Shown here: one piece after another, positions 4,010-59,490 of the stretch
Layout: each line of letters opens with the position of its first letter
Numbering within the stretch: position 1 is the stretch's first letter
NCBI GenBank assembly: GCA_964344705.1
Contig: CAYFOG010000001.1
Span: forward strand, 48,984-112,983
Reading direction: 5' to 3'
Origin: Candidatus Woesearchaeota archaeon
GTDB taxonomy: Archaea; Nanobdellota; Nanobdellia; UBA10117; ARS21
Length of the DNA stretch: 64,000 nt
Notes under the pieces: model-generated
The model's input: only the letters and a program-made list of their open reading frames with translations
What the model was told of the DNA's origin: nothing
Database searches by the model: none
Made by a program: the position numbers and the translations under genes

Positions 4010-4029
4010 GAGAAATATCCGAATCTAAT

Positions 4030-4290
4030 GGGCTAGACAGGTCGGGTAAGCGCGGCTGTTATCTTGTATGCTGAGATGTCGAAGCTCAAAGGGCGGCATG
4101 GATTGTATGCTTAGTCCCTGGCGTGTGACGTCGAAGCGTTGCCTCCTCTGGCGATTAAAGATGAGAACCTGGTCAGGCGGGGAACCGAGCAGCCATAATT
4201 ATGTTTATTTGTGCTTTGGAGTAGCGGCGTGGAGTTGTTCGTCAGTAAGGCTTTGTATTTTTGAAATGTCCACCTTTGAGCGTGCCCTTT
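4030..4290 (+). ncRNA. ffs: Signal recognition particle RNA (7S/SRP RNA)
   Basis: GC-rich island in an AT-rich genome with no ORF. The 5' end GGGCUAGACAGGUCGGG resembles an archaeal SRP RNA 5' end. The helix 8 motif GGUCAGG-CGG GGAA CCG-AGCAGCC (GNRA tetraloop flanked by conserved internal-loop nucleotides) lies at about 4170-4196. A 3'-proximal GCCC can pair with the 5' GGGC, followed by a U-rich tract. Ends are approximate. Confidence 0.8.
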
Positions 4291-4385
4291 ATATTCTGAA
4301 CTAAGATAAATATTATAATACTGTGATGCGTTTTTAAAATATGAGTTACAAAATTGGAAGCGGATCAATTTTTCCATATATTCAA

Positions 4386-4673: not shown

Positions 4674-4819
4674 CTTGGTAAACTTTGGAAACTCGAAGTA
4701 TTTGATTTATGTTTCTATAATTATTGCAATTATTTGGGTACTATTTTTTTAGAAGTGCCAAGGATGAAGATTCTCGCCTTTGGTTAAAGCGAGTCCAAAA
4801 CCATAGATTAAAAATTGAA

Positions 4820-4902
4820 CGCCAAGGACGGGATTTGAACCCGCGACCCCCGAAGGGACAGGATTAGCAATCCTGCGCAATACCAGGCTATGCGACCTTG
4901 GC
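4820..4902 (-). tRNA. tRNA-Ser (anticodon GCU)
   Basis: Cloverleaf built by hand on the reverse strand: acceptor GCCAAGG/CCTTGGC, anticodon loop TTGCTAA, long variable arm GTCCCTTCGGGGGTC, T-loop TTCAAAT, discriminator G. No encoded CCA. A T-run follows as terminator. Confidence 0.85.
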
Positions 4903-4964
4903 AAATATGAACCTTCTCTCCTCGGGGTTTATGAGGGTTGCCGAAGCAACTGAGAGAAGGCAAA
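4903..4964 (-). other. Structured inter-tRNA spacer: 9-bp closing helix (CCUUCUCUC/GAGAGAAGG) enclosing a UUCG-tetraloop hairpin (GUUGC-UUCG-GCAAC) and a second 4-bp hairpin
   Basis: Seen directly in the sequence between tRNA-Phe and tRNA-Ser, on the strand they are transcribed from. Confidence 0.5.
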
Positions 4965-5038
4965 TGGGACTGGCAGGATTTGAACCAGCGACCTTCCGAT
5001 CTTCAGTCGGGCGCTCTCCCAGGCTGAGCTACAGTCCC
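4965..5038 (-). tRNA. tRNA-Phe (anticodon GAA)
   Basis: Reverse-strand cloverleaf: acceptor GGGACTG/CAGTCCC, D-arm GCTC-AGCCTGGGA-GAGC, anticodon loop CTGAAGA, T-loop TTCAAAT, discriminator A. One U-U mismatch in the T-stem. Confidence 0.85.
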
Positions 5039-5060
5039 ATTGAAATCTCGGTTTGAGAGA

Positions 5061-30200: not shown

Positions 30201-30725
30201 ATGAAATTGAAGGATTCAGAACATGTGTATTCTCCGCGAGAAGATTCAAAATTACTACAACGCGTTGTTGAGAATTACATGAAAAAATTCAAACCGAAGC
30301 GAGTTTTGGATATGGGAACAGGTTCAGGAATTCAAGCTATTGCTGCAAAGAAAGCTTATTCCGGTGCTGAAGTTTTTGGAGCAGATATTAATCCAATGGC
30401 GATTGACTTGGCTACTGAAAATGCTAAACTTAATGATGTTGAGGTTAAGTTTTTCGTTTCAGATTTGTTTGAACGATTTTATGGTCAAAAGTTTGATTTG
30501 ATTATTTTCAATGCTCCTTATTTGCCTCCAGAACCACCGCTTGATCCCATTTGGAGTGGCGGTGAAAAGTTTATTTTGAAGTTTATTGAGTTAGCTCGAG
30601 AACATCTGAATAACGACGGAAAGATTTTATTTGTTTATTCATCCAAATCTCCAGTTAAATTCGAACATAAAATTATAGTTTCAGAGAAAATATTCTTTGA
30701 AACGCTCTATGTTGCTGAGGCGTGA
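30201..30725 (+). CDS. HemK/Mtq2-like methyltransferase (small MTS domain; N5-glutamine or N6-adenine type)
   Basis: Motif I VLDMGTGSGIQ, motif IV NAPYLP (NPPY variant). Confidence 0.6.
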   Translation: MKLKDSEHVYSPREDSKLLQRVVENYMKKFKPKRVLDMGTGSGIQAIAAKKAYSGAEVFGADINPMAIDLATENAKLNDVEVKFFVSDLFERFYGQKFDLIIFNAPYLPPEPPLDPIWSGGEKFILKFIELAREHLNNDGKILFVYSSKSPVKFEHKIIVSEKIFFETLYVAEA

Positions 30726-30734
30726 TAAGGTTTA

Positions 30735-31075
30735 TATTAAACCTGTGTCTTCTTGATTTAAGAAGACGGGGCTAACCTTGTGAATCACTTAAAGTTAAGT
30801 TTCAACTCTCGCGAGTGAAGCTATAAAGAGTGATACGGGCAATAAGGGCAACTGTTAGTAGCTTGAGACGACGATTGGGATAATAGGCCGCGATATGCGA
30901 ACCCTTTTCGATTCGTTTGATCCCTCACTAGCATCTCTTAATGTCAGAAGAGGCTATTGACCGAGCTGTTTGAGCTGAAGAGTTCATTAAGGATTCATTC
31001 AGGAGGGCAACACTTTGGCCGTGGACCTTTTCCACATGGGCCTATACGTCTTCTGAACTTTTCAAAATTCGAGCC
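30735..31075. ncRNA. Unassigned structured RNA candidate (GC-richer, ORF-free, ~340 nt); RNase P RNA is a possibility but consensus CR-I/CR-V boxes are not convincingly present
   Basis: GC-elevated island with no ORF. Terminal hairpins GUCUUCUU-GAUUU-AAGAAGAC (5') and GGCC-GUGG-ACCUUUU-CCAC-AUG-GGCC (3') followed by a T-rich tract. Box A-like TTTATATTAAAC sits at 30730. Ends CGUCUUCU/AGAAGACG can pair. Strand not resolved. Confidence 0.3.
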
Positions 31076-31108
31076 ATTTTTAAGTTTTAATGCTAAAATC
31101 ATAATCCC

Positions 31109-31354
31109 ATGCTAAACGCATATGTATTAATAAAAACTCGAGCAGGTCAAGAGAAAGACGTTCTTGAGACTTTGAGTGCTGATGAAAGTATTGTAGATGT
31201 AAGTATTGTTTACGGGCAATATGATTTAATTGCAAAAGTTTTCTTAAATGATATGACTGATTTGCCAACATTTATCATGGAAACAATCCGACCAATTAAA
31301 GGAATTACAGAAACTTCTACTTTGCTCGCGGCTTACGACCCTTCGAGTGCTTAA
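31109..31354 (+). CDS. Stand-alone Lrp/AsnC ligand-binding (RAM) domain protein
   Basis: 81 aa, YVLIKTRAGQEKDVLETL...GQYDLIAKV matches an AsnC C-terminal domain without the HTH. Confidence 0.55.
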   Translation: MLNAYVLIKTRAGQEKDVLETLSADESIVDVSIVYGQYDLIAKVFLNDMTDLPTFIMETIRPIKGITETSTLLAAYDPSSA

Positions 31355-34447: not shown

Positions 34448-35104
34448 TTATATAAGTTCTGTTAACTCCGATAAATCCTTTACGATTATATCTGGATACT
34501 CTTTGAGAAGATCTTTGTAAGTCCGCGTTCCAACGACCGCAATAGCCATCACGTCATATTCTTTTGCCATCCGAATATCTGTTTCAGTATCTCCAACAAC
34601 TGCTTTGATTTTTGATCCGAGCGCCTTCTCTAATTTTTTAAGAGGTTCAGTACTCGGCTTACGATGTCTTACATTATCCATCCCAACAATGGCTTTGAAA
34701 TATCTTGGATTGACGTTTAGATTTTGAAGCGTTTCTACTATTACTCTATGTTCAGCATTTGAAGCAATTGCCAAAGTGTATTTTTTGTTCAGCTCAACCA
34801 AAGTTTTCACTATATTTGGTTTGGCGGCAGCTTTAGTTATGTCGAGCAATCTGCTTTGATCCTCAGCTATTTTTTGAACTTTTCTTCGGCCTAAAGAAGG
34901 ATAAATTTTGTGAATAATTGTCTCTCGAAACTTTCCAAGGTGTCTCTTAATCATGCGCGCAGGAACTTTGTATAAATTATTCTTAGTAAATGATTCATTG
35001 TAAGCATCAACAATTTCTTTGGATGAGTCAACAAGTGTTCCGTCGAAATCGAATACAATAATTTCCTTTTTTCCCGCCCTAACTTTGCTTTCCATTTTAT
35101 TCAA
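34448..35104 (-). CDS. HAD-superfamily hydrolase (phosphoglycolate phosphatase-like)
   Basis: Motif I VFDFDGTLVDS, motif IV VGDTETD. Confidence 0.65.
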   Translation of the reverse strand: MNKMESKVRAGKKEIIVFDFDGTLVDSSKEIVDAYNESFTKNNLYKVPARMIKRHLGKFRETIIHKIYPSLGRRKVQKIAEDQSRLLDITKAAAKPNIVKTLVELNKKYTLAIASNAEHRVIVETLQNLNVNPRYFKAIVGMDNVRHRKPSTEPLKKLEKALGSKIKAVVGDTETDIRMAKEYDVMAIAVVGTRTYKDLLKEYPDIIVKDLSELTELI

Positions 35105-36146
35105 ACTTATATCTCAGTTTAGCTATAATGCCTTTCAATCCATTTAACTTTTTGCCCGCTGGACTAGACGATGAAATAAGGTTAACAATGCCGCCGCCGC
35201 TTTCAACATGCTCAATTAGTTCTTTAATTTCGTCAGAGCCATCGAGTCGAGAATCAGAGATTAAAATTGATTCTACTGCACCGACCTCAGCAGCAGCCTT
35301 TGTTTTTGAGATACCGTAAATTATTAACTCTGAATTTTTTGCTATCAATTGAAGAGCCTCATTAACTAAATCTTCCTCGCGGCTTAGCTGACTATTTTTG
35401 ATAATCTTGTCAAGTGCGTTTCCGCTGATTAACTCACGAATTCCATCTTCTCCACCCGAAGATACATCTTCGAGCTTGACTTTTTTGGCAGTATCCGGAA
35501 AATCTTCTTCCAATTGTTTTTTTACAATTTCTTTCCAGAAAAGAGGACTTCCAAGAATTATTACTTCAACTTTTTTGTCGTTGAATTTGTCATTAATTTC
35601 TCTGGTGACTCTTTGAATATCTTTGTAGCCTTGATTTTTTTGCTCCTCGTACCGCTTTTTTGATAGACGAAGAGAAATGCCTCCGAGTTTTGTGTAGCCC
35701 GCAGCAGTGATGTGCGCGAAGTTGGCCTGCTCGTCGTCTAAGACGCAAACGAGTGCTTTTGGGGCTTTTGATGCTGCTTCAGCATCCTTTACCATTTGAA
35801 TTTGATATTGTTTCCATTTGCCTTTTTCCACTTCCAATTCAGTTCCAAGTCCTGCTTCGATTGAGTGTGCAGAGTGCATGGCAATACCTTCAATTTCGCT
35901 TTCAACTGTGCCATGAACTCTCAGAAACCGGTCAAAATCAAGTTTTGTGACCTTAATTGTAATTTTGAAGCTCTTTTTTACAGATTTTTGCCTTCCAGTA
36001 GCTTCACCTAACTTGATTTTTCTATAAGTTAATCCGCGGACTGCGTCTCCCGGCTCAATAATTTGCTTTAGAAATAATAGATCATCAAGGCTGTCTATTC
36101 TGAGGTTCAGACGGTTGTTTTTGAGGTCTAGTCGCTGGACTATCAT
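35097..36146 (-). CDS. pelA: Pelota/Dom34 (mRNA surveillance, aRF1-like)
   Basis: Three-domain eRF1-like architecture, N-terminal Sm-like domain, 349 aa. Confidence 0.8.
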   Translation of the reverse strand: MIVQRLDLKNNRLNLRIDSLDDLLFLKQIIEPGDAVRGLTYRKIKLGEATGRQKSVKKSFKITIKVTKLDFDRFLRVHGTVESEIEGIAMHSAHSIEAGLGTELEVEKGKWKQYQIQMVKDAEAASKAPKALVCVLDDEQANFAHITAAGYTKLGGISLRLSKKRYEEQKNQGYKDIQRVTREINDKFNDKKVEVIILGSPLFWKEIVKKQLEEDFPDTAKKVKLEDVSSGGEDGIRELISGNALDKIIKNSQLSREEDLVNEALQLIAKNSELIIYGISKTKAAAEVGAVESILISDSRLDGSDEIKELIEHVESGGGIVNLISSSSPAGKKLNGLKGIIAKLRYKFE

Positions 36147-36193
36147 ACGTTTTTGAACAAAAACTATATATTAAAAGCTTGTTAGTGTTTATC

Positions 36194-37354
36194 ATGTCTA
36201 TAGGCCGAAAAGGGAAGTCGGAAGTAAGCCCTACGGGTGCCGTAGTTTTGCTAGTTTTGCTCGCAGGATTTTTGCTATTTATCCTATCTCTTCCTCAAGG
36301 GGATCGAGATGATTTACTGAATCAATTAGAATCTGTTACTGTAGAAGTTCTTTTCGAAGAAGTTCCAGGAGACGTTCAGTCGGAAACAGGTTCTAGTAGC
36401 ACAACGCGCTATGACCTCACAAATTTCAAATTAGATTCAGAAATGAGTTCAAGAGATTCAGTATTAGATAGCAGTTTAGAACTATCTTCGACAGTTTTTA
36501 ATGATGATGCTGCAACTTATTCTTTTGTGCCAGTTTGGAATTCAAATACCATTGGAATGAGTTTTAATGCATTTGTTCAGAATTATGCAGGCAACGGAAA
36601 AATTGCTGTTTTGCTAAATGGAGCTCAAATATATTCGGGAACTCCTGTTGTTGGGAATGTGCTTAAAGTTCCACTTCCAGTTTCAGGAATGTTTCAAGGA
36701 ACTAATACTTTGGAAATAGTACTAGATAAACAAGGTGCTAATATTTTCAGTTCTACGAAAATTGGATTAACTGAAGTTCTGCTGAGAACGGACTCTACAG
36801 GGAAAGATTTGATGAGCACCTTTAGTTTTGAAGTTGAACGTGGAGAAATAGTTTCAGGAACTTATACCGCAATTGTTAGAAAATCTGGTGCAGCAGTTCC
36901 ACTTAAAATTGAGTTGAATGAAGAGAATATTTATTCTGAAGTTCCGCTATCAACCATATTAACTGTTCCAATTTCGGCTGGTTTGTTTAGAGTAGGAGAT
37001 AATTTACTATCATTCAGCATTGGTGAAGGAGTGTCCTACGAAATTCTTTATTCAGATTTGATTGTTAAAACTCGTGCTATTGAAGATGCCAGAGAGTATT
37101 TCTTTAGAATTGATAGAGATCAGGCTAGACGAATAATTAATGGCCGAGCAGACTGTCTTCTTGAGATTTCCAAAGACAGCGGAGCGTCTGATGAAGTTGT
37201 TGTTGATTTGAATGGATTTGTTAGCACGCACTCCGTTCGCTCTGGAGAAGTTTCGTTTGAGGTTTGCGACAGACTGGTTTATGGAGGGAATACAATTTCA
37301 TTTGCTTCTGATGAAGAGTTAAGTCTCAGTTCGGCAAGCTTGACTTTGAGTTAA
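36194..37354 (+). CDS. Hypothetical N-terminally membrane-anchored extracellular protein (first gene of a 4-gene surface operon)
   Basis: N-terminus MSIGRKGKSEVSPTGAVVLLVLLAGFLLFIL (basic residues then a hydrophobic anchor), S/T-rich extracellular part. The track start at 36179 is a TTG. TATA-like AAACTATATATTAAAAG lies about 20 nt upstream of the ATG (leaderless). Confidence 0.5.
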   Translation: MSIGRKGKSEVSPTGAVVLLVLLAGFLLFILSLPQGDRDDLLNQLESVTVEVLFEEVPGDVQSETGSSSTTRYDLTNFKLDSEMSSRDSVLDSSLELSSTVFNDDAATYSFVPVWNSNTIGMSFNAFVQNYAGNGKIAVLLNGAQIYSGTPVVGNVLKVPLPVSGMFQGTNTLEIVLDKQGANIFSSTKIGLTEVLLRTDSTGKDLMSTFSFEVERGEIVSGTYTAIVRKSGAAVPLKIELNEENIYSEVPLSTILTVPISAGLFRVGDNLLSFSIGEGVSYEILYSDLIVKTRAIEDAREYFFRIDRDQARRIINGRADCLLEISKDSGASDEVVVDLNGFVSTHSVRSGEVSFEVCDRLVYGGNTISFASDEELSLSSASLTLS

Positions 37355-37355
37355 G

Positions 37356-39269
37356 ATGGCAGATAATTCTGGTACAACAACCAATAAAGAGAAATGGATT
37401 GAGATTGGGAGTGCGCCGAAGGCTATTTTCAAAGCAGGAATATATGTATTAGTTATTTTCTTCTTTGCGGTTTTAGGTTATAATACTGGAGCCCCATTAA
37501 TCTGGTTTACTTATGTAGCAAACTTTTTTTGGGATATATTTAATTTGATTGCAAGAACAATTGGTGTTCCTGGAATTTCTCCTTTTTTTCTTGACTTTGC
37601 CTATGTTGCGGTAAAGAATGGAACGGGTTTTATTTTGAATGGTCTGTTTGGTTGGTGGCTCGTTCAAAATTTTTATCAAGGCACAAATAAAGTGGCCGGT
37701 GCTAAAAAATTAACAAGTAGCCTGTTCAATTTGGTCATAATTTTTCCATTAATTTGGATTTTTCTGAGTTTAATTATTACAACAGTTTACACAGGTTATG
37801 TTCCTTTTACAGACACAACAATGAGTCCATCACTTTGTGATTTTCAAAATTCAGCTCAACAAGCTGTTGGCTTGAGTCCGGTGTCTTGTGATATTTCTTC
37901 AATAACTGCGTCTATTGAGAGACAAGAAGAAGAAGCAGAATTTACAGCGACGACGGGAACGGGAATTTTAGGAAGGCTGTTTTCTCCAGTTATAGAGTCG
38001 ACGGGCGTTGGAAAAGTATTCAAATCTCGAGATGTGACGGATGAGAATGTTATTAATGCAGACGCAGGTTCAACTCTAACTGATTTGCGTGCTCCGAAAT
38101 TAAGTTATACTGCAAATGATAGAGTTGCAGAAGATATTAAGATATTAGCAAATATTGAGGCCAAGAATTTGTTCTTAAATCAACCAGGTAGTTCCAAGAT
38201 TGAAGTCAAGATTGAGCCAAGCATTTCAGATGCTCAATGTAGTAGTTGTTCAGGATTTAGCTGTTTGGCTGAAGAAGTTAATCTGCCGTTCTATGCTTTT
38301 GATCCTCTAGAAGATAATTCTATTGAATTTAATGCGGAAAATATTGAAGGTTGGTGTGATGAAGATGAGCAGGGCGGAAAGTGGACTTGCGGAATTAGTG
38401 GAATTTCTGAAGAAGATAGAATTGCTCCAAACACTTTCAATTTAGGAAGCGGATTCCACCAAGAGATTACTTGCATACATCCTGGACTTTCCTTGAGCGA
38501 AGAAGTGTTTGTTGATGGAGATGATGTAAAATATGATGGTCTTGGTAAACCGTTCTATGTTGATGTTGATTTCTCATATGATGGAACCGCCGCAGCAAAC
38601 AAACAATTGTTTGTGATTGACAAGAATGTTGCTCGTCAGGAAGAAGACCCGCTAACGGCACTGAGCTTACAAGATTACATAATTTCCAATTCTTATAATG
38701 ATGGAAGAGTAACTTTGGGAATTGGAACTGACACTTTGTATGAGTTTGTTACTCCAACTTATGATGAAGATTTCTCTTCAGATGTACTTGAACTTGCGTT
38801 AAGTTTCAAAGTAAATAGATATCCCGGTGGATATAAAGCAGAAGTCAACAAAGTTACTTTATGGGTCCAAGTTTTGGATGAATCTGTGGGATTCGTTTGC
38901 GGAAATGAAGGATTACCGAAGAAAGTTGATGGAAAATGGCAAATTGATAATCCTTGCGAAGTCGGCGAGCGAAGCGGAAACTTCCATTATGAAGGAACTG
39001 ATGAAACTGAAAGCTATCACAAGTTTGTTATGAATGCAGAGAATGCAACTGAGCTTGGTGCCAAGACGGAGTTGAATGTTGGGCAGTTTGCAAATTATGA
39101 TATTGATATGTTTATTCCTTCAGAAGTGCTGGCTGGAGCCAGTTATCAAGGTATTTTAATAGAGGCCGAGGTTGATTACACTTACACTACTCGAGACGAT
39201 ATATTAGTTAGAGTGACGCACGATGAATTTATTTCAGACGGAGCATCAGACATTGAACAGAACATATAA
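37356..39269 (+). CDS. Hypothetical polytopic membrane protein (about 4 N-terminal TM helices) with a large Cys-rich extracellular domain
   Basis: 637 aa. Multiple Cys clusters (CSSCSGFSC, WCDEDEQGGKWTCGISG, VCGNEGLP...NPCEVG). The start is 1 nt after the previous stop. Confidence 0.5.
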   Translation: MADNSGTTTNKEKWIEIGSAPKAIFKAGIYVLVIFFFAVLGYNTGAPLIWFTYVANFFWDIFNLIARTIGVPGISPFFLDFAYVAVKNGTGFILNGLFGWWLVQNFYQGTNKVAGAKKLTSSLFNLVIIFPLIWIFLSLIITTVYTGYVPFTDTTMSPSLCDFQNSAQQAVGLSPVSCDISSITASIERQEEEAEFTATTGTGILGRLFSPVIESTGVGKVFKSRDVTDENVINADAGSTLTDLRAPKLSYTANDRVAEDIKILANIEAKNLFLNQPGSSKIEVKIEPSISDAQCSSCSGFSCLAEEVNLPFYAFDPLEDNSIEFNAENIEGWCDEDEQGGKWTCGISGISEEDRIAPNTFNLGSGFHQEITCIHPGLSLSEEVFVDGDDVKYDGLGKPFYVDVDFSYDGTAAANKQLFVIDKNVARQEEDPLTALSLQDYIISNSYNDGRVTLGIGTDTLYEFVTPTYDEDFSSDVLELALSFKVNRYPGGYKAEVNKVTLWVQVLDESVGFVCGNEGLPKKVDGKWQIDNPCEVGERSGNFHYEGTDETESYHKFVMNAENATELGAKTELNVGQFANYDIDMFIPSEVLAGASYQGILIEAEVDYTYTTRDDILVRVTHDEFISDGASDIEQNI

Positions 39270-39293
39270 AAATGAGGGAGGGCTTCATAGATT

Positions 39294-40274
39294 ATGAAGA
39301 AACTTCATGTAATCATGCTTATTCTAGTAGTATTTCTGAGTGGATGTACTGCTGATGAGTCTATTGAGGTTCCAGTAGCTTCTAATTATGTTGGATTGGT
39401 TACAAGCGTTTATGCAGATTCTTTACCAAGTTCATTATATGAAGGAGATGCAATTTATTTGCAGTTACAGGTTGAAAATCAAGGAGATCATGATGTTGCT
39501 ACAAGTGAGTATTATCTGAACATAAAAGGAATTAATCCTGGAGCTTTTGAGGGTTTGGATGAGACCGATCTAACCAAAACTTCTAGCACGAATTTAGCGT
39601 CATTAGGTGCTTTTGGTAATGACACAATTGTTCGAGGTCAAGAAATATTTACTCTTGGTGAATCATTTACTTATTGTAATGATATTGATAATGACTTACC
39701 TTTGAATCTTCATGCTAAATCTTGTTATGATTACGGAACAACTTCAGAAATATCTGCGTGCTTTATTGAATCAACCGCAAGTATTGATGGAGAAATTTGT
39801 ACGGTTTCAGAATTTAAGCCAGTAACAAACAGTATTGCGCCGATAGTGATTACTGAAATTGCAGAGAGCGTTGCAGGAGCATCAGATGTTCGATTTAGAG
39901 TAAAAGTTGAGAACCTTGGAGACGGAACAGTATTTGACAAATATGCTTTGGGAACTGAGACAGATACTATTGTTGGTTGCGATAATTTGGTTCGAGGAAC
40001 AAGCAACCTGGTGTATATTGAGAAAATAACTTTGGATGGAATACCTATGAATTTGAGATATGAAGGAGGTGTTGAAACTACTTCAGATGGAAGAAACAGA
40101 TTTAGACTTGATTCAACGGGCGCGGGAAGATTCTCTTTTGTGACTGGAACAACAGGTCTTGAATTTGTTGGTAATGTTGAGATTGAGTTAAGTTATGGTT
40201 ACACTGAGACAGACGTCTTTAGCTCAACAATCAAAGCACTTCCAGACTTTAGCCCGACGTGTAGTGTTGCCTAA
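39294..40274 (+). CDS. Hypothetical lipoprotein (lipobox LSGC), paralog of the next gene
   Basis: Signal peptide plus the lipobox VFLSGC. Conserved Cys pattern shared with the 40277 protein. SD GGAGGG upstream. Confidence 0.55.
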   Translation: MKKLHVIMLILVVFLSGCTADESIEVPVASNYVGLVTSVYADSLPSSLYEGDAIYLQLQVENQGDHDVATSEYYLNIKGINPGAFEGLDETDLTKTSSTNLASLGAFGNDTIVRGQEIFTLGESFTYCNDIDNDLPLNLHAKSCYDYGTTSEISACFIESTASIDGEICTVSEFKPVTNSIAPIVITEIAESVAGASDVRFRVKVENLGDGTVFDKYALGTETDTIVGCDNLVRGTSNLVYIEKITLDGIPMNLRYEGGVETTSDGRNRFRLDSTGAGRFSFVTGTTGLEFVGNVEIELSYGYTETDVFSSTIKALPDFSPTCSVA

Positions 40275-40276
40275 AA

Positions 40277-41263
40277 ATGAACATTCGAAAAGCAATTATT
40301 GTGGTTTTGTTAATATTTGTTAGCGGATGCGTTCATGGAGCGCAAACTACTTCTAGCGGAGATATTGGAAGCGGACTGATTGGCACAAATAACGGAATCA
40401 TTTTTGAAATGTCAGAAATTCCACCAGCGATCAGTTCAGGTCAAGCATTTGGTTTAGAAGTTTCAGCGACAAATGCTGGTTCATATTCTGTAAATCCAGG
40501 AGACGTCAGAGTTTCATTAAGCAATTCAAAATCCTTCAATTTTTTATTGAATGAAGATTTTCAGCAAGTGATAGTTGGGGAAAACGGTTTAACTAATAAT
40601 AATGTTTTGCTTAAGTCTTTGGACGCAGATGTTCTTGGAGATTCAGCAATTTTCTTGTTTGATGATTTGTCTTACAAAACTAAACCTACTCAAGATATTC
40701 AAGTTCCGCTTACAATTGATACTTGTTATTATTATTCCTCTGTTGCGTCCGTAAATATTTGTGTTGCAAAAGATACGTCAAGCGAAATTTGCAGTTCAAA
40801 CGAAGCTAAGTCTGTTGTAAATCACGGAGCTCCAATAAAGGTTTCAGGATTTGAACAAATAAGTAGTTTGGGCAACAAAGAAGTAATTACATCAAATATT
40901 CGGATCGATGTTGATGCTGTTGGAGATGGCAAATTTGAATCTTATTCCACTCCAAAGCCAACATTGGATTGTACTGCTCCAGCAAGCGATATTATTCTTA
41001 ACTCAGTAAGATTGAAATCTATTCAAGTTGGAAGTCAAGCAATAATTGAAGGAGATGATATTGACAGCGTTTGCGAAGTTTCTCAAGATGGCGGAATTAT
41101 TAATTTGGATGCTGATGGAAAAGGTTCAATCGTTTGTAATGGTGTTAGACTTTATGGACAATATACAGAATCAATTGGTGATTTTGAAGAAAGAATGGTA
41201 ATTACTTTGGATTATTTGAATTCAGACAGCATTACTGGAAATTTGAAGGTTCTATCAAATTAG
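40277..41263 (+). CDS. Hypothetical lipoprotein (lipobox VSGC), paralog of the preceding gene
   Basis: Signal peptide plus the lipobox IFVSGC. Shared C-x(8-10)-C-x9-C region and similar length (328 vs 326 aa). Confidence 0.55.
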   Translation: MNIRKAIIVVLLIFVSGCVHGAQTTSSGDIGSGLIGTNNGIIFEMSEIPPAISSGQAFGLEVSATNAGSYSVNPGDVRVSLSNSKSFNFLLNEDFQQVIVGENGLTNNNVLLKSLDADVLGDSAIFLFDDLSYKTKPTQDIQVPLTIDTCYYYSSVASVNICVAKDTSSEICSSNEAKSVVNHGAPIKVSGFEQISSLGNKEVITSNIRIDVDAVGDGKFESYSTPKPTLDCTAPASDIILNSVRLKSIQVGSQAIIEGDDIDSVCEVSQDGGIINLDADGKGSIVCNGVRLYGQYTESIGDFEERMVITLDYLNSDSITGNLKVLSN

Positions 41264-47211: not shown

Positions 47212-47286
47212 GGAGAAGGTGGGGTAGCTTGGTTATCCTCTCTGCCTGTGGCGCGGAGGACCCGTGTTCAAATCACGGCCTTCTCC
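47212..47286 (+). tRNA. tRNA-His (anticodon GUG) with genomically encoded G-1
   Basis: Hand-built cloverleaf: G-1:C73 extra pair, acceptor GAGAAGG/CCTTCTC, U8, anticodon loop CTGTGGC, 4-nt variable loop, T-arm CCGTG-TTCAAAT-CACGG. No CCA encoded. Confidence 0.85.
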
Positions 47287-47321
47287 CTTTTACTAAGTTT
47301 TAATAAGTTTGGAGGTATCTA

Positions 47322-52850: not shown

Positions 52851-52925
52851 CGGATCCGAAGGGATTTGAACCCTCGACCTACAGCTTAGAAGGCTGCCGC
52901 TCTATCCAGACTGAGCTACGGATCC
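52851..52925 (-). tRNA. tRNA-Arg (anticodon UCU)
   Basis: Reverse-strand cloverleaf: acceptor GGATCCG/CGGATCC, D-arm GCTC-AGTCTGGATA-GAGC, anticodon loop CTTCTAA, T-loop TTCAAAT. TATA-like element at about 52951-52957 upstream. Confidence 0.85.
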
Positions 52926-53088: not shown

Positions 53089-55212
53089 ATGGTAAACATG
53101 AAAAAAATGATATCAGTTGCCCTTATGGTGCTGATTGGACTAACTTCTTTGTCAGTAGCTTTTGCTGCGACAAGTACTAATGGCGACTTTACTGCTGTTG
53201 AAGATACAAATGCATTAACTATTGCTCACGGTCAATCTGTGAGCGGAACTATAACTCTAACTAATAATATTGGTACGGGTGCTGCTATGATTTATGATCT
53301 TAGTCTAACGGGACTACCTGCTTGGATGACAGTTACTTTTTATGAGAGCGGAAGTCTAATTACTCAGACAAGTTCAGTTGCTGATGGAGCATCTTTAACA
53401 ATTACTTATACTGCAAGTGTTACAGCAAATACTGCTGCAACTACAACACCTCAAGCATTCAACATTGTGGCTAGTGAAAATGGAGCAGCTACAGCAAACA
53501 CTGCTACAATCGCAATGACTGCTGAGGTTCCAAGCGATCCTTCACGAGTTATCACTCAAGATACAGTTGTATCAACTGTTGCTCGAGAAAGCTCAGTAGA
53601 AATTACTGTTGAAGTTGATAACACAGGAAATGAAAACGTTGTTGTTTCTCAAACTCTCGGAAGTTTGGCAAACGCAGCAACTGATAACACTTATTTGGAT
53701 ATTGGAGCTTTGACTTTGAATTGGAATGATGGAAGAACTCTTTCAACCACTGGAGCAACTGTAGCTCCTGAAACTGGTGGATCAAATACAATTATTCCAG
53801 GAAGCTCTCAAAATTTCGTAATTACTATACCTACTGTAGCAACAGATAGATATGGAGTGTACACCGGAACTTTGAGTCTTATGGATAATTCAAATCCAGC
53901 AATTTCAAAAGATACATCTGCTTTGACAATTAATCTTGTTGATGTAAACAACGAAGCAGGATTAAAGATTAATGATGGTCCGAAGGATGGCGAATTCAAT
54001 GACGTATCTGCGGATGATTCAAGAACTTATCCTGGAGACAATATTGAAATAATCGATGTAACAATTGATAACGAAGTTGGTAAAGATTTAGAAAATGTAT
54101 TCGTTACAATTTCTGTTTACAGTCAAGTCGATGGAGATAAAATAATTAATGAATTCGAATCAGATTATTCAGATATTGATGACAATAGAGATGATCAATT
54201 TGATTACGCATTCCAATTACCTTTTGATATTATTGAAGGAACATATGTAATTGAATATGTTGTAGAGGCTGAAGATGTAGATGGAAATTTATCAACTGCG
54301 ATGGCTTATGACACATTTACAGTTGAACAAGATAGTGATCACTTGGCTGTAGAATCAATTACAATTGGAGAATACTGTGCGGGTGAAACTGCAGAATTTG
54401 AAGTAAAGATTGCAAATATCGGAACAACACGAATGGATGATACTGATGATATTCAAGTTAAAATGACAATTGGAAATTTCAATTTTGATGAAATAATTAG
54501 ATGGACTGAGGACTTCAGGTCCGGAGATTCAGAATTATTTACATTTAATGTAGATATTCCAACAGACGCAACAAGTCCAAACCTTATAGAAGTTGCTGTA
54601 TTCCATGATCGGGATACAGATTCCGGAGATGACGGTGCAACAAGCGCTCAAACATATACTTTGTCAACAGAGAATTGTGCTGAAGCTGAAGGTGCTGACG
54701 TACATGGAATAATTACTGGAACATCTGTTGCAGATGGAGCGGTTGGAACTCCGGCACGATATGATCTGACAATCATGAACACTGGTTCAAGTCTGGCAGA
54801 ATATGATTTGGAAGTTTCAGGAATATCTGGATGGGGAACATCACAAGTTGAACCTGCAGGAACAATTACTGTTGGCGCAGGAGAAACAGCAACTGTGTAT
54901 GTTTACTTAACTCCAAACGATAACGCGGCTGAAAGCAATGCTGCGGTAATAACTTTGAAATCTGGAGCAAACGTAATTCAGACAAAAACAGTAACAATGA
55001 ATGTTGCTGGAGCTTCAATTTCAACATATACAAATGCTTTACTCGGTTCAAGTATTGTTGACTTGGGCGCAGACCAACAAGGTTTGATTACTCTGTTGTC
55101 TCTGGCCACAATCTTGTTTGTAACTGTGGGAACACTTTACACAGCTACACAACCAACAAGAAGTTCAGCAAAGAAAAAGAAGAAGCGAGCAACAAAAAAG
55201 GAGCGTAGATAA
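53089..55212 (+). CDS. Large secreted surface protein with CARDB/DUF11-like repeats and a C-terminal TM anchor plus K-rich tail
   Basis: Signal peptide MKKMISVALMVLIGLTSLSVAFA, T/D/E-rich beta-repeat regions, C-terminus LLSLATILFVTVGTLYTA-TQPTRSSAKKKKKRATKKERR. Confidence 0.55.
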   Translation: MVNMKKMISVALMVLIGLTSLSVAFAATSTNGDFTAVEDTNALTIAHGQSVSGTITLTNNIGTGAAMIYDLSLTGLPAWMTVTFYESGSLITQTSSVADGASLTITYTASVTANTAATTTPQAFNIVASENGAATANTATIAMTAEVPSDPSRVITQDTVVSTVARESSVEITVEVDNTGNENVVVSQTLGSLANAATDNTYLDIGALTLNWNDGRTLSTTGATVAPETGGSNTIIPGSSQNFVITIPTVATDRYGVYTGTLSLMDNSNPAISKDTSALTINLVDVNNEAGLKINDGPKDGEFNDVSADDSRTYPGDNIEIIDVTIDNEVGKDLENVFVTISVYSQVDGDKIINEFESDYSDIDDNRDDQFDYAFQLPFDIIEGTYVIEYVVEAEDVDGNLSTAMAYDTFTVEQDSDHLAVESITIGEYCAGETAEFEVKIANIGTTRMDDTDDIQVKMTIGNFNFDEIIRWTEDFRSGDSELFTFNVDIPTDATSPNLIEVAVFHDRDTDSGDDGATSAQTYTLSTENCAEAEGADVHGIITGTSVADGAVGTPARYDLTIMNTGSSLAEYDLEVSGISGWGTSQVEPAGTITVGAGETATVYVYLTPNDNAAESNAAVITLKSGANVIQTKTVTMNVAGASISTYTNALLGSSIVDLGADQQGLITLLSLATILFVTVGTLYTATQPTRSSAKKKKKRATKKERR

Positions 55213-55230
55213 ACTCGCTCCCTCATACTC

Positions 55231-55255
55231 TCACCTGAGGTACCTCAGGAGGTGA
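55231..55255 (+). promoter_or_regulatory. Intergenic hairpin (palindrome CCTGAGGTACCTCAGG with flanks) overlapping the SD-like GGAGGTGA of the next gene
   Basis: Perfect 7-bp stem CCUGAGG/CCUCAGG with a 2-nt loop. GGAGGUGA lies 8 nt before the ATG at 55264. Confidence 0.35.
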
Positions 55256-55263
55256 AAAACAAA

Positions 55264-56841
55264 ATGAACAAAATAACAAAAAATTTGATTAGTTTGCTTT
55301 TGGTAACATTAGCATTACTAGCACCAGTAAGTGCAGCAACTCCTGCATTGGAAATTAGTCATACTAACTCTAATGGAGACAGTGCAACAGCACGACTTGT
55401 AACCTCTAATCTGGTGATGACACAAGGAGGAGTTCTAAGCATCCCTGTTGATGTATTGAATACTCTTTCAACTGACTACACATTAGAAGTTATTGTAACT
55501 GGAGACGGAATTGACAACACAAAGTCAGAAACATTGAACATTGAAGCAAATCTAGGTTCTATTTCAGAAACTAGAACTGCAGAATTTGTTCTAGACAGTG
55601 TTCTGACAGAAGGACAACACAGTATAAATGTACAATTGAATCTTCACGATATGACTCAACAACAAGCTACTGGGTCACTAGCAATGGATTTAACTGTTAA
55701 CCCTGAAATTCCAGCACTTCCAATAAACTATGAACCAAACTTGGTTACAGCAAAATTGGATAAAAGTGACTTGAATCCTGGTGATAACGTAGAAATTGAA
55801 ATTGATCTTGAAAATGGTTTAACTGATTACGATGATGTAACTGTTGAAGCTAAAATTGTTGATTCAAACAATGAAAGAGTTGGAGATAAAGTTGAAGTAG
55901 ATGTCGGTCACTTAGAAGCTGAATTCGACAAAACTGTAACTATGTCTATAGCACTTCCATCTGATTTGGACACTGGAGCATACGCAGTTGAAATTATTGT
56001 AACTGGAGACGTTGAAACTAGTTCAACTGTTCAATTAATGAACACACAACTAGACGCAGCAACTCTAAACTTCGATGTTGAAAGACACGAACACAGTTTG
56101 ACTATTGAATCAGTTACACATAATCCAAATGCACAAGCAGGTGACACATATAGTGTTGCAGTTAGTGTTATGAATAATGGATTAAACTATGAAGAAGATG
56201 TTGTAATTACTGTTTCTATGGCAGGAACAACTCAAACTTCAGCAACTTTCGCAATTGATCAAGACGAAGAAATTGTTCAATACTTTAACTTAGCTATCCC
56301 AAGTGATGCACAAAGTTCAGAAGTATTGGCTGTGTTAGTAAATGGAGAAGATTCTTCAGCAAGATACACTGCTGAAGTAAATGTTGGCGCAAGCGCAACT
56401 GTAAGCTCTGCTGGATTATCAGCAACTGTTGATTCAGTTTCCAAGACTGTTGGAAGCGAAGGAACAGCATATATGATAACTCTAGTAAACAACGATGATT
56501 TAACAAGAACTGTCGGTGTTTCCGTTGGCGGAGTACAAGGTTGGGCAGATGCTACAATTACACCTGCAACTCTAACATTGACTCCAGGGTCAAGTGGAAT
56601 TGCAAGCGTATACATTAACCCATCAGATAATGCTGAAGGGACAAACGCTTTCACTGTTTATGTAAGTGAAGGAAACCAAGTTGTTTCAAGCGTAGGTCTA
56701 ACAGCTACTGTTGATGATGCAGTTGATGTAATGAATTGGGCTTTAGCAGCAATTGCTTTGGTTCTAGCAGCATTCGCATACAACCAACGATCTCGTCCAG
56801 CAACAAAAGGACGAAGAAGATCAAAGAGAGTCTACTACTAA
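55264..56841 (+). CDS. Secreted surface protein with CARDB/DUF11-like repeats and a C-terminal TM anchor plus basic tail
   Basis: Signal peptide LLLVTLALLAPVSAA, C-terminus WALAAIALVLAAFAYNQRSRPATKGRRRSKRVYY. The track start at 55252 is a GTG; the ATG at 55264 has an SD. Confidence 0.55.
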   Translation: MNKITKNLISLLLVTLALLAPVSAATPALEISHTNSNGDSATARLVTSNLVMTQGGVLSIPVDVLNTLSTDYTLEVIVTGDGIDNTKSETLNIEANLGSISETRTAEFVLDSVLTEGQHSINVQLNLHDMTQQQATGSLAMDLTVNPEIPALPINYEPNLVTAKLDKSDLNPGDNVEIEIDLENGLTDYDDVTVEAKIVDSNNERVGDKVEVDVGHLEAEFDKTVTMSIALPSDLDTGAYAVEIIVTGDVETSSTVQLMNTQLDAATLNFDVERHEHSLTIESVTHNPNAQAGDTYSVAVSVMNNGLNYEEDVVITVSMAGTTQTSATFAIDQDEEIVQYFNLAIPSDAQSSEVLAVLVNGEDSSARYTAEVNVGASATVSSAGLSATVDSVSKTVGSEGTAYMITLVNNDDLTRTVGVSVGGVQGWADATITPATLTLTPGSSGIASVYINPSDNAEGTNAFTVYVSEGNQVVSSVGLTATVDDAVDVMNWALAAIALVLAAFAYNQRSRPATKGRRRSKRVYY

Positions 56842-56955
56842 GTAGACTTTCTTCTTTTCTTTTTTCTTATCTTTAAAATATGCTATTAAATAGCTAAATC
56901 TTTTTATATAAAGTTCCGACGGTAGAGCAAGGTAGAACTACCTTAGGATGATAAT

Positions 56956-59490
56956 ATGATGAAGAAACTTTTCATGACTCTTGCAGTTTTGGTGCTAGTT
57001 ATGCAACCAGCTTTTGCGTTTACGCTTTCTTCAGCTGATCAAAGTGTTTCAACATGTCCGAGTAATACTGGATTGTTTGTTGCGCAAGTTGGAAATACTG
57101 GAAGTTCTACAGAGATTTACACACTAGGATTATCGGGCGCAGCAAGCGGTTGGGCAAGCGTTGCTCCAGCAGGATTTGCTCTTGGTCCGGGACAATCTCA
57201 AGACGTTTATGTTTATGTTACTCCTTCTTCAAATGCACAAGTCGGCAATTATCCTTTAACTTTAACTGTTTCTTCTGGCACGTCAAGCCAGAATTTGGCT
57301 TTTGATTATACTGTGGAGTCTTGTCATGATATTTCACTTACGGCTCAAACCAATGAGCTATCCGTTTGTTCAGGAAATTCAGCAAGCTATGTTTTAAATT
57401 TGAGAAATGACGGTCAGTGGGAGGATACATTTGACTTAGCAGTCTCTGGAGAAGCAGGAATTTGGTCGAGCTTGAGCCGGAATTCTGTTTCACTTGCGCC
57501 AGGAGAGTCCGAACAATTAAGTGTAGTTGTTACACCGCCAAGAAACGAGGTTGGAGTTTATTCGCTAGCAGTATCTGCCACATCTCAGAGTGCTGGAGTC
57601 GTGGTTGCTCAATCATTAACAATCGCCTCAAGATCATGCTATGATTTTGACATGGTTGCCTCAGAAAACTATGTCTCATTTTGTGATAATTCTGAAGCGA
57701 AAGTTCCAGTAACAATTACTAATTCAGGTTCAGAAAACGATGTTTACAGTTTAGATTTGAATGGGAATAGTTGGTCTGTTCTTGATAGAGATTCAATTAG
57801 CGTTCCTGCGGGAGCCAGTGCAGCATTCAATTTAATATTAACTCCAGGATTTGGAGATGTTGGAACAAGTGTTTTCAATATTGAAGCTGAAGCCACTACT
57901 GGAGACACATCAGATTCAGTAACAATTAATGCAAATGTCTTAACATGTAGAGATACAAGTTTGGATATTGAGAGTTCAAGTATTGAGCTTTGTCCTGGAA
58001 CAAGTGAAACTGTTAATGTAATGCTGACAAATGCGGGACAGTTCCAAGAGAGTTATTCTTTGACGGTTGATGGTCCAAGTTGGGTTAATTTGGATAGAAA
58101 CTCAGTAATTCTTGCTTCAGGCGAATCAGCAACAATGCAATTATCTTTATCACCGCAAACGAATGCGGGTTTGATTTATGAAGATGTTACTGTCAGTGCA
58201 AAATCTCAAAATGTAGGAAATACTCAAGACTCTGATTCAATTAGAGTAAATGTTCCAGTAAGAGCGGCTTGTTATAATGTTGACGTCTCGACTGAACACA
58301 GGGCTGTCACCGTTGCTTATGGTGAAGGAGCGTTAGTTCCAATTGTTGTTCAAAATATAGGTTCTCAAAGCAATACTTATGAATTTACTGTGTCTGGAGA
58401 TGGCGCACAATTTGCGCAGATTAATCCTGGAGCAATTGAAGTTGAAGGCAATACTGTTGAAGAAGCTTACTTATATATTTCAGTTCCACGAGATGCAGCA
58501 AAAACTTCGTATACGATTGCAGTGGCTGCGCAATCTGGAGATTTAAGAGATTCAACCGCAGTTATTCTGACCGTTTCAGATGAAGAACCTAAATTTATTG
58601 GAGCCGTACCAGAAAGTTTGAAAGATGCTGGTTCTGGCGCAGTTTCATCAGTTTGGAGTGGCCTAGTTAGTTTATATTCCGTCACCTCTAATTTTGTTAT
58701 AAATTATTGGTATATATTTCCAGCACTATTGGCACTGTTGGTTGTGCTTTATGGACTCGGACGAGTTCGTGATTCTGAATCTTGGATGAAAGATTTGGAA
58801 CTTCTTGAGCAAGAGTTAGAACTTTCTGAAAAGAAAGAGATACCTAAACCTAAGAAGACACAACCATCATTGCTAAAGCGTTTCTCAGATTGGTTAATGG
58901 AAGAAGATGAAGTTAAAGTTGTAACTAAATCTAAACCTCCAGTGAAATCTGAAACAAAAGTGAAAAAAGAACCGGGAAGGTTCCAACGTTTCTCAGATTG
59001 GTTAATGGAAGAAAACGTACCAAAGGCTAAGCCGAAAGCCAAACCTACCCCTAGACCTAAACCTAAGAAGACACAACCATCACTACTAAAACGATTTTCT
59101 GACTGGTTAATGGAAGATGATGAAGTAGTTCAAGTAACTCGTAAACCTGGGAAATCATTATTAGAACAAGCAAAAGAATTTCTTTTTGAAGAAGTTCCAG
59201 TTACTGAAGAGAAAGTTAGAAAACCTAAACCAAAGAAAAAGGAAAAAGGACTTTGGCAAAAATTCATTGATTGGTTAGAGGAAGAAGATGAATCTAAACC
59301 AAAGCCCAAATCACGTTCAAGATCGACGCCAAAACCAAAAACCAAGAAAGAACCAGGACTATTACAAAAATTCTCAGATTGGTTAATGGAAGAAGATGAC
59401 AAACCTAAGACTAAACCAAAACCTAAACCAAAGAAAAAGGAAAAAGGTATTTGGCAAAAATTCATTGATTGGTTAGAAGAGGAAGATTAA
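56956..59490 (+). CDS. Large surface protein: signal peptide, five ~105-aa Cys-bounded CARDB/DUF11-like repeats, a single TM helix, and a ~250-aa cytoplasmic tail with six K-F-S/I-D-W-L-M/E-E-E-D-E motif repeats
   Basis: Repeats start CPSN.., CHDISL.., CYDFDM.., CRDTSL.., CYNVDV... TM segment YIFPALLALLVVLYGLG. Tail motifs LLKRFSDWLMEEDE, FQRFSDWLMEEN, LLKRFSDWLMEDDE, LWQKFIDWLEEEDE, LLQKFSDWLMEEDD, IWQKFIDWLEEED, separated by K/P-rich linkers. Confidence 0.55.
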   Translation: MMKKLFMTLAVLVLVMQPAFAFTLSSADQSVSTCPSNTGLFVAQVGNTGSSTEIYTLGLSGAASGWASVAPAGFALGPGQSQDVYVYVTPSSNAQVGNYPLTLTVSSGTSSQNLAFDYTVESCHDISLTAQTNELSVCSGNSASYVLNLRNDGQWEDTFDLAVSGEAGIWSSLSRNSVSLAPGESEQLSVVVTPPRNEVGVYSLAVSATSQSAGVVVAQSLTIASRSCYDFDMVASENYVSFCDNSEAKVPVTITNSGSENDVYSLDLNGNSWSVLDRDSISVPAGASAAFNLILTPGFGDVGTSVFNIEAEATTGDTSDSVTINANVLTCRDTSLDIESSSIELCPGTSETVNVMLTNAGQFQESYSLTVDGPSWVNLDRNSVILASGESATMQLSLSPQTNAGLIYEDVTVSAKSQNVGNTQDSDSIRVNVPVRAACYNVDVSTEHRAVTVAYGEGALVPIVVQNIGSQSNTYEFTVSGDGAQFAQINPGAIEVEGNTVEEAYLYISVPRDAAKTSYTIAVAAQSGDLRDSTAVILTVSDEEPKFIGAVPESLKDAGSGAVSSVWSGLVSLYSVTSNFVINYWYIFPALLALLVVLYGLGRVRDSESWMKDLELLEQELELSEKKEIPKPKKTQPSLLKRFSDWLMEEDEVKVVTKSKPPVKSETKVKKEPGRFQRFSDWLMEENVPKAKPKAKPTPRPKPKKTQPSLLKRFSDWLMEDDEVVQVTRKPGKSLLEQAKEFLFEEVPVTEEKVRKPKPKKKEKGLWQKFIDWLEEEDESKPKPKSRSRSTPKPKTKKEPGLLQKFSDWLMEEDDKPKTKPKPKPKKKEKGIWQKFIDWLEEED
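58850..59490 (+). repeat. Imperfect tandem DNA repeats (~60-70 nt units) encoding the FSDWLMEEDE-motif tail
   Basis: Near-identical DNA stretches, e.g. aagacacaaccatca(t/c)t(g/a)ctaaa(g/a)cg(t/a)tt(c/t)tc(a/t)ga(t/c)tggttaatggaaga at 58856 and 59066, and gaaaaagg(a/t)(c/a)tttggcaaaaattcattgattggttaga at 59244 and 59443. Confidence 0.6.

Follow-up and report, generated by a model that had tools for sequence, protein, structure and literature searches.

What kind of gene, if any, occupies the gap between a methyltransferase gene and a small ligand-domain gene in the genome of a Candidatus Woesearchaeota archaeon? The stretch of DNA analysed here, referred to below as the window, comprises 64,000 nucleotides of contig CAYFOG010000001.1 (assembly GCA_964344705.1), and the gap, at 30726-31108 with + strand genes on both sides, had been noted in a preliminary description as a GC-richer region free of open reading frames (ORFs). 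Three readings had been left side by side: a highly reduced RNase P RNA, a different and undescribed structured RNA, or a structured leader of the downstream gene. We report here that the gap almost certainly holds a real and new structured RNA gene. The gene is probably a stand-alone one, whose trans-acting product would be excised at a bulge-helix-bulge (BHB) motif and circularised, with its final folding gated by this processing.

The RNA gene and its conserved fold

Both compositional claims of the preliminary description hold. No ORF in the gap exceeds 52 amino acids, and its G+C content, 0.456, is above that of the window (0.363) and of either flanking gene (0.354). The single-sequence folding energy of the gap, compared with shuffled sequences, is only marginally favourable (z = -1.95 on the + strand and -1.18 on the - strand), and the case for a structured RNA therefore rests on covariation and comparison.

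About 30 distinct homologs, representing at least seven clades and reaching down to ~49% identity, were recovered from metagenome-assembled genomes and metagenomes of Woesearchaeota (DPANN), at the same place after the MTQ2-type methyltransferase gene. Some of these loci (denoted by L numbers) were reached without any sequence pattern through more distant methyltransferase orthologs (L009-L014, L137, L138, L142-L144), while a metagenome scan with one gapped pattern returned 120 loci, of which nhmmer confirmed 20; nhmmer profiles were used for the confirmation of homologs. In seven species-level genomes the gene order is S19e, a small ORF, the methyltransferase, the RNA, the RAM gene, an MscS-like channel and a DRG GTPase. 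Across syntenic genomes the RNA element is 67-96% identical, compared with 53-90% for the methyltransferase protein, and it is present once in the 64-kb window. The RNA was not found at the methyltransferase locus of L015/16, L139, L140 and L141, whose orthologs are at most 53% identical, and the family seems to be either confined to a Woesearchaeota sub-clade or mobile. At L141 (1300-1804), which is without the RNA, two RAM-domain genes lie on the opposite strand, showing this locus to be plastic.

These homologs reveal a well-supported secondary structure. RNAalifold identified 19 compensatory pairs in 8 sequences, and the model was then curated by hand from covariation where the single-sequence minimum-free-energy fold had mis-paired the apical part of one long arm (D-E-F). 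With 18 sequences and 96 pairs, the curated model has 90.9% of its cells paired, against 40-47% in slid controls, and compensatory changes at 52 pairs, against 14-28 when slid; none of 500 shuffles reached any of these measures. Nine clade representatives, folded independently as circles by minimum free energy, arrive at the same arrangement of four arms. The RNA is thus a four-way junction composed of a short stem B, a hairpin C and two long arms, D-E-F and G-H, and the suggestion of a different, undescribed structured RNA finds its support in this covariation. The helices also identify the transcribed strand: their cells contain 220 G.U against 33 A.C combinations, and therefore the + strand is the RNA.

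Stem B, formed by CCUUGUG (30776-30782) and CACAUGG (31033-31039), is 97% paired and has compensatory changes at 4 of 6 pairs. Hairpin C follows at 30784-30834, with a lower stem AUCACUU/GAGUGAU, which reads AUUGUCU/GGGCAAU in L006 (seen by eye and in the curated model), an upper stem UUUCA../..UGAAG, and in its apical loop (30806-30816) an 8-nt palindrome of the form NUCGCGAN'. This palindrome differs by clade in its outer pairs, reading CUCGCGAG in the window, UUCGCGAA in L006, L009, L011 and L137, and AUCGCGAU in L109; the L013 clade lacks it. It either forms a 2-bp stem capped by a CGCG tetraloop or is self-complementary so as to serve RNA dimerisation. The long arm D-E-F (30838-30945) has three helices, namely D (30838-30858/30928-30945), which carries an invariant internal loop GCAAC, E (30866-30873/30909-30918) and F (30877-30879/30902-30904), which are 89-98% paired and have compensatory changes at 16 of 28 pairs. 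Its apical loop contains AUAGGC (30883-30888), directly followed by a mini-hairpin CGC-GAUAU-GCG (30889-30899). The second long arm, G-H (30947-31032), consists of helix G, GAAGAGGCU (30947-30955) with GGACCUUUUC (31023-31032), and an upper part (30959-31019) with a conserved UUUGAG and an apical hairpin of variable length; helix 11 of the curated model, in this arm, is 94% paired, and 15 of 21 pairs carry compensatory changes. A 3' hairpin proposed earlier, GGCC-GUGG...CCAC...GGCC, does not survive this comparison, since it is 77% paired, barely over the shuffle and slide controls, and its bases belong instead to helix G, stem B and either helix H or the pseudoknot, which are described below.

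The gene has signals of its own at both ends. The box A-like element of the preliminary description is a TATA box, TTTATATT at 30731-30738 (+), invariant in 8 close homologs. Most clades have a TATA-like box 16-23 nt ahead of helix h, the outer helix of the terminal stem, and the spacing in the window agrees with that of its four tRNA genes; the predicted transcription start is at about 30760/30761. On the 3' side of helix h there are T-runs at 31060-31063 and 31079-31083, and read directly from the sequences a T-run lies 0-15 nt after this helix in all clades.

Known families do not account for the RNA. With Rfam 15, the whole window at gathering thresholds gave matches to three tRNAs and to signal recognition particle (SRP) RNA, none of them in the gap; no family matched the gap when the whole window was searched at E<=5, a 501-nt slice (30650-31150) at E<=10, or the RNA at seven divergent homolog loci at E<=10. 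These searches, which the preliminary description had proposed as a check, gave neither an RNase P match nor a match to any other family at the RNA. They covered all the large orphan noncoding RNA (ncRNA) families that Rfam holds, and models of SRP RNA, large and small subunit rRNA (LSU/SSU) and introns yielded not even partial matches at E<=10 in the region or the seven loci. By eye, no consistent K-turn, C/D-box, H/ACA or sarcin-ricin motif was found in the RNA, and its conserved loops have no convincing complementarity to tRNA T-loops or to the rRNA segments compared. The RNA was not found described in the literature on RNase P or on circular and structured ncRNAs in DPANN and Woesearchaeota. 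We accordingly rate the family as new to description, and its BHB-dependent maturation as an already known kind of biogenesis.

The bulge-helix-bulge stem and the predicted circle

The preliminary description had noticed that the termini of the region can pair, as in P1/P2 of RNase P RNA. The pairing is real, but what it forms is a BHB motif rather than P1/P2, and this geometry was missed in the first reading. Helix h, between AGAAGACG in the leader (30761-30768), which is removed from the predicted mature RNA, and CGUCUUCU in the trailer (31047-31054), has compensatory changes at 5 of 8 pairs across clades. Proceeding inward, this 8-bp helix is followed by a 3-nt bulge in the 3' strand (AUA, 31044-31046), the 4-bp helix H formed by GGGC (30769-30772) and GCCU (31040-31043), a 3-nt bulge in the 5' strand (UAA, 30773-30775) and stem B, which here takes the place of helix h'. 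Each strand thus reads helix, H, bulge, helix, and this is the polarity of the hBHBh' substrate that the archaeal tRNA-splicing endonuclease recognises in pre-tRNAs and in rRNA processing stems. Canonical cleavage of a BHB falls between the second and third bulge nucleotides (+/-1 nt), which predicts cuts between 30774 and 30775 and between 31045 and 31046. The hBHBh' motif has been described (PMC4731332).

The centre of the motif is conserved. Helix H has 4 of 4 pairs and both bulges are 3 nt long in 25 of 25 scored sequences, and likewise in L137 and L144; it is 100% paired in the 18-sequence curated model while h and h' covary freely. Its pair variants are exchanges of G.U for A-U (L013), C-G for U.G (L109/L110) and G.U for G-C (L137/L144). 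Helix h' measures 7-9 bp in nearly all scored sequences, although by strict scoring it extends only 2 bp in L109/L110, and helix h measures 7-13 bp in most clades. The enzyme expected to cut such a stem is encoded in the window: a tRNA-splicing endonuclease, EndA, of 163 amino acids at 61217-61708 (+), identified by Pfam domains PF01974 (tRNA_int_endo, E 7e-29) and PF02778 (tRNA_int_endo_N). It is of the size of alpha4 enzymes, which have been reported for DPANN lineages (PMC5829648). A gene for the ligase RtcB was not found in the 64-kb window. Divergently adjoining the EndA gene is a gene for a tRNase Z-like metallo-beta-lactamase (60208-61116, -), so that two tRNA-processing enzymes stand side by side. 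Processing of the RNA at the BHB motif appears quite likely.

The 5' strand of helix h is also part of the 5' hairpin that the preliminary description had proposed. This hairpin is conserved in the close clades, being 93.8% paired in 8 close sequences with two compensatory pairs, but it is not a terminal hairpin: the TATA box and the predicted start flank its 5' arm, and its 3' arm is supplied by helix h, as the 5' strand of that helix. It sets a pyrimidine tract opposite a purine tract, and slid controls reach up to 75%. Base composition might account for the hairpin, or it might keep the BHB from forming in read-through transcripts or act at the level of the DNA. Just upstream of the predicted start, GUCUUCUU (30747-30767) can pair with the 5' strand of helix h and covaries with it in close clades.

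Excision and ligation would yield a mature RNA of 271 nt (30775-31045, +), with 31045 joined to 30775 at the predicted junction GGGCCUAU/ACCUUGUG; the equivalent circles in homologs would be 235-273 nt long. In the circle, stem B is closed by a 7-nt junction loop, GCCUAUA. Within this loop, GCCUAU (31040-31045) is perfectly complementary to the AUAGGC at the apex of arm D-E-F, and no other unpaired stretch of the RNA is conserved as strongly as AUAGGC. A pseudoknot, or kissing loop, between the two is possible in every sequence. Among ten clade representatives 98.3% of this loop-loop pairing is paired, against 2-42% when slid; it has two compensatory pairs, and 2 of 500 shuffles reach its score. 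The compensatory changes are an exchange of A-U for U-A (L011/L137/L144) and one of A-U for G-C (L137/L144). The outer pair is A-U in most sequences, U-A in L011, L137 and L144, G.U in L021 and U.U in L109/L110. Both compensatory changes occur in homologs that the metagenome pattern had not selected. In L137 and L144, retrieved by synteny, the loop is UUGGGCC and its partner GGCCCAA, with the A-U to G-C exchange in the core. The support for the loop-loop pairing is real but comes from few events.

Helix H and the loop-loop pairing are mutually exclusive. Before processing, GGGC holds GCCU as its partner strand on the 3' side of helix H, and GGGC is removed with the leader; thus the loop-loop pairing could form only after excision. 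The following pathway may be envisaged. Transcription would start ~22 nt past the TATA box, at the base of the leader/trailer stem, and this stem would fold into a canonical hBHBh' consisting of the 8-bp helix, a bulge, GGGC/GCCU, a second bulge and stem B. EndA would cut both bulges, and an RtcB ligase would join the ends into the 271-nt circle, which would fold as the four-way junction of stem B, hairpin C and arms D-E-F and G-H. With GGGC gone, the junction loop GCCUAUA would be free to pair with the apical loop AUAGGC, so that the mature tertiary fold would be licensed by processing. From the comparative data we infer that the RNA is cut and circularised, and in which order its conformation changes; circularity and the kissing loop are likely, somewhat less so than the BHB processing itself.

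Several observations weigh against this proposal. Excision and circularity are predictions from sequence. Helix h is just 0-5 bp long in L011, L137, L144, L021 and L079, a weakness of the proposal that makes the 3' cut less secure there. In L011, L137, L144 and L021 the promoter lies only ~16-24 nt from helix H, so that the 3' bulge would be without an outer helix. As described above, the 5' strand of helix h can also pair with a segment upstream, and this alternative is conserved. In most sequences there is no variation at five of the six pseudoknot pairs, and the sixth is U.U in L109/L110. Moreover, the metagenome pattern fixed TAGGCC and GGGCCTA, and only the loci derived from synteny test those positions.

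Alternative explanations and the RNase P question

The BHB geometry might be incidental. In that case, the structured RNA would have a plain closing stem, EndA would make no use of the 3-4-3 arrangement, and the mature RNA would be linear with its ends paired. Paired termini are common among stable RNAs, some clades (L021, L144) have only a poor helix h, and cleavage is deduced here rather than observed. However, an arrangement of 3 nt, 4 bp and 3 nt in the correct polarity has been kept over ~50% divergence while the flanking helices covary freely, and EndA is present in the window. The strand freed by excision is perfectly complementary to, and covaries with, an invariant loop, and in a linear RNA with helix H formed the loop-loop pairing would be blocked. 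We therefore consider the linear RNA unlikely. The evidence is still clearer against a cis-regulatory element, either a 5' leader or riboswitch of the RAM gene or a 3' untranslated region of the methyltransferase gene, a reading suggested by the position between two same-strand genes and by the tight synteny with the methyltransferase. A conserved TATA box and a T-run terminator belong to the RNA itself, and the RAM gene has a TATA-like box of its own ~25 nt before its ATG. In L011-L014 and L144 the RAM gene is absent and in L137 it is replaced, yet all of these retain the RNA; because the RNA stays where the RAM gene is missing or replaced, it is not a RAM-gene leader, and this option of the preliminary description can be set aside. 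As for the methyltransferase gene, an extra ORF separates it from the RNA in L137, and methyltransferase orthologs without the RNA exist (L015, L139-L141), leaving a cis-acting role with scarcely any credibility. The extra ORF (L137:2557-2817) encodes 86 amino acids of unknown family. Archaea also have a BHB-flanked permuted SRP RNA and circular or permuted rRNAs, and the locus might hold such a permuted or fragmented known RNA, or else a mobile or viroid-like element that has become domesticated. At 4026-4291 the genome already has a full SRP RNA (89 bits), and the searches for partial SRP, rRNA and intron matches described above were negative. The gene is single-copy and in fixed synteny, and when viral contigs were scanned with a relaxed pattern, all 120 matches were due to chance and none was a true homolog, making an origin of this kind highly improbable.

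The RNase P option requires more discussion. The RNA could be an extremely derived RNase P RNA of this lineage, without P1, circular, and with the specificity domain lost or replaced; stem B would then correspond to P2, hairpin C to P3 and the loop-loop pairing to P4. Size, single copy number and the housekeeping style of the gene are about right, and RNase P RNA is the only universal ~300-nt RNA not otherwise seen in the window. If arm D-E-F is ignored, the order of the 5' strand of stem B, hairpin C and the 5' strand of the pseudoknot, followed later by the 3' strands of stem B and of the pseudoknot, mirrors P2-P3-P4...P2'-P4'. The L009 sequence GAGGAAAAUAGGCC resembles CR-I (GAGGAAAGUCC), reduced RNase P RNAs are found in the related Nanopusillaceae (PMC4919917, PMC12974513), and a circular RNase P RNA is known in Thermococcus.

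Against this stand both the search results and the structure. No RNase P model matched at E<=10 in the region or in the seven divergent homologs. Regular expressions applied to 11 circularised clade representatives gave no match to the full or relaxed CR-I (GNAANNUCNGNG) and none to CR-V (ACNNNANNNNGNNUA), two universal motifs that build P4 and its flanks (as attributed to Chen & Pace 1997); the lack of CR-V in the preliminary description thus extends to all these clades. Relaxed CR-V and CR-IV-like strings do occur, at positions not conserved among clades, and the CR-I-like string pointed out earlier on the reverse strand is irrelevant, as the + strand is the RNA. The A/U-rich linker that precedes the pseudoknot, in place of J3/4, is not conserved, and the 6-7 bp covarying pseudoknot, only loosely analogous to P4, has no bulged U and no J2/4. 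Its 5' strand sits at the tip of arm D-E-F, enclosed by 16 compensatory pairs, so the conserved loop that resembles CR-I is the tip of a covariation-supported arm and does not lie between P3 and P5. Two candidates picked by eye were rejected: GUCAGAAGAGGCUAUUG, read as CR-V, is the 5' strand of helix G, where GAAGAGG/CCUUUUC covaries with GUCGAGG/CCUUGAC, and GGGAUAAUAGGCCGCG, read as CR-I, has a linker that is not conserved.

The tRNA genes of the window bear on the same question. In all four (4819-4903, -; 4964-5039, -; 47212-47287, +; 52851-52925, -) a TATA-like 8-mer ends 22-25 nt before the mature 5' end, the spacing for tRNA-His being counted from the encoded G-1 at 47212. This suggests that their transcripts would be leaderless, an arrangement known from Nanoarchaeum equitans, which is free of RNase P (PMC3491384). 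Screening of 29 related loci for further tRNA genes found none, and no RNase P protein, such as Pop5, Rpp29, Rpp30 or Rpp21, was found among about 60 proteins of the 64-kb window. A highly reduced RNase P RNA is therefore not supported by either the models or the motifs. We judge the RNase P reading improbable, and keep a small place for it because only 64 kb and four tRNAs were covered. The tRNA-His(GUG) gene (47213-47287, +) is found by ARAGORN and missed by the Rfam tRNA model both at gathering thresholds and at E<=5. In the 60-nt spacer between the genes for tRNA-Phe and tRNA-Ser (4903-4964), a small GC hairpin, GTTGCTTCGGCAAC, is framed by an inverted repeat, CCTTCTCTC...GAGGAGAGAAGG.

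Relation to known systems and further features of the window

A stand-alone RNA gene with a BHB-processed circular product has a close precedent. The SRP RNA of Thermoproteus carries a leader/trailer BHB that is cut by EndA, and a functional loop arises when the RNA is closed into a circle (Plagens et al. 2015; PMC4731332). Both that gene and the one described here are stand-alone ncRNA genes with a TATA promoter and a leader/trailer BHB, cleavage being predicted in our case, and in both an RtcB-type ligation to a circle would create a loop needed for the functional fold. Unlike the Thermoproteus SRP RNA, which is recognisable and has known protein partners, the present RNA matches no family, and the SRP RNA of its genome lies elsewhere and is unpermuted. 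The role of the junction loop would also differ, as we propose a kissing interaction, whereas in the Thermoproteus SRP RNA the loop is a protein-binding tip. The same hBHBh', in which either strand has a 3-nt bulge on the 3' side of the 4-bp helix, occurs in the 16S/23S stems of pre-rRNA and at pre-tRNA introns, where the same enzymes would be expected to act and the excised part is circularised, as predicted here. In contrast to those BHBs, the present motif is in neither an rRNA operon nor a tRNA, and the excised RNA is the conserved product; its flanking "exons" are short, variable and probably waste, whereas in pre-rRNA and pre-tRNA the excised part is an intermediate or a discarded intron.

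Resemblance to archaeal RNase P RNA (RF00373; type A/M, type T of Pyrobaculum and the reduced forms of Nanopusillaceae) is confined to a similar size, a housekeeping-style gene, a closing helix followed by a hairpin, and a long-range pseudoknot whose 3' strand adjoins the 3' strand of the closing helix. The present RNA differs in lacking CR-I, CR-IV, CR-V, J3/4, J2/4, the bulged U, the motifs of the S-domain and any covariance-model match, and in that a hairpin loop capping one of its long arms contains the 5' strand of the pseudoknot. Among orphan RNAs, the nearest counterparts are OLE, GOLLD, ROOL and HEARO, which are long, covariation-supported and lineage-restricted RNAs, mostly of bacteria or phages, whose function was unknown at discovery. 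The present RNA shares with them its length, its intricate covariation-supported structure and its restriction to one lineage. Unlike them, it is archaeal (DPANN) and predicted to be BHB-processed.

Large and intricate RNAs of unassigned function are rare, and they have repeatedly opened new biology. That genomes as small and as poor in genes as those of Woesearchaeota have kept this RNA implies an important role, and together its conservation, single copy, own promoter and neighbourhood of translation genes point to a housekeeping ribonucleoprotein (RNP) scaffold or a ribozyme. Whether it represents a new class of large DPANN housekeeping RNA, made circular by the tRNA-splicing machinery and gated in its folding by processing, is in our view an evenly balanced proposition. 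In its boldest version, the proposal would make the RNA a catalytic or RNP core that replaces, or descends from, an RNase-P-like function in a lineage with leaderless-looking tRNA genes. If the proposal is true, the moonlighting of the tRNA-splicing endonuclease and ligase would take in a new stand-alone RNA besides tRNA, rRNA and the SRP RNA of Thermoproteus, and the locus would offer a clean, testable case of processing-gated folding, in which the same six bases would pair first in the BHB and then in the kissing loop. The leaderless-looking tRNA genes, together with this RNA, raise the question of whether some Woesearchaeota are, like Nanoarchaeum, without canonical RNase P. For annotators there is a simpler caution, namely that the locus should not be named RNase P RNA.

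Annotation of the SRP RNA in the window calls for similar care. The preliminary description had placed an SRP RNA elsewhere in the window, and a complete copy is indeed present at 4026-4291 (+), divergent archaeal and unpermuted. Its score of 89.1 bits falls below the gathering score of 96.5 for Archaea_SRP (RF01857), and gathering thresholds report only its core (4138-4234), as Bacteria_small_SRP, so that default annotation would mislabel it.

Of the neighbours of the RNA gene, the HemK2/MTQ2-type methyltransferase gene lies upstream at 30201-30725 (+), and the RAM/AsnC-ligand-domain gene, of 81 amino acids, downstream at 31109-31354. About 4.5 kb from the methyltransferase gene is an eRF1-type gene with all three domains (35097-36146, -), encoding aRF1 or a Pelota-like protein; in other organisms MTQ2 methylates a release factor. 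Four large ORFs in a row (391, 637, 326 and 328 amino acids) follow at 36179-41263, with no significant Pfam match. Finally, 53089-59490 encodes three large proteins with repeated Ig-like/FixG_C-type domains, which are probably located at the cell surface.

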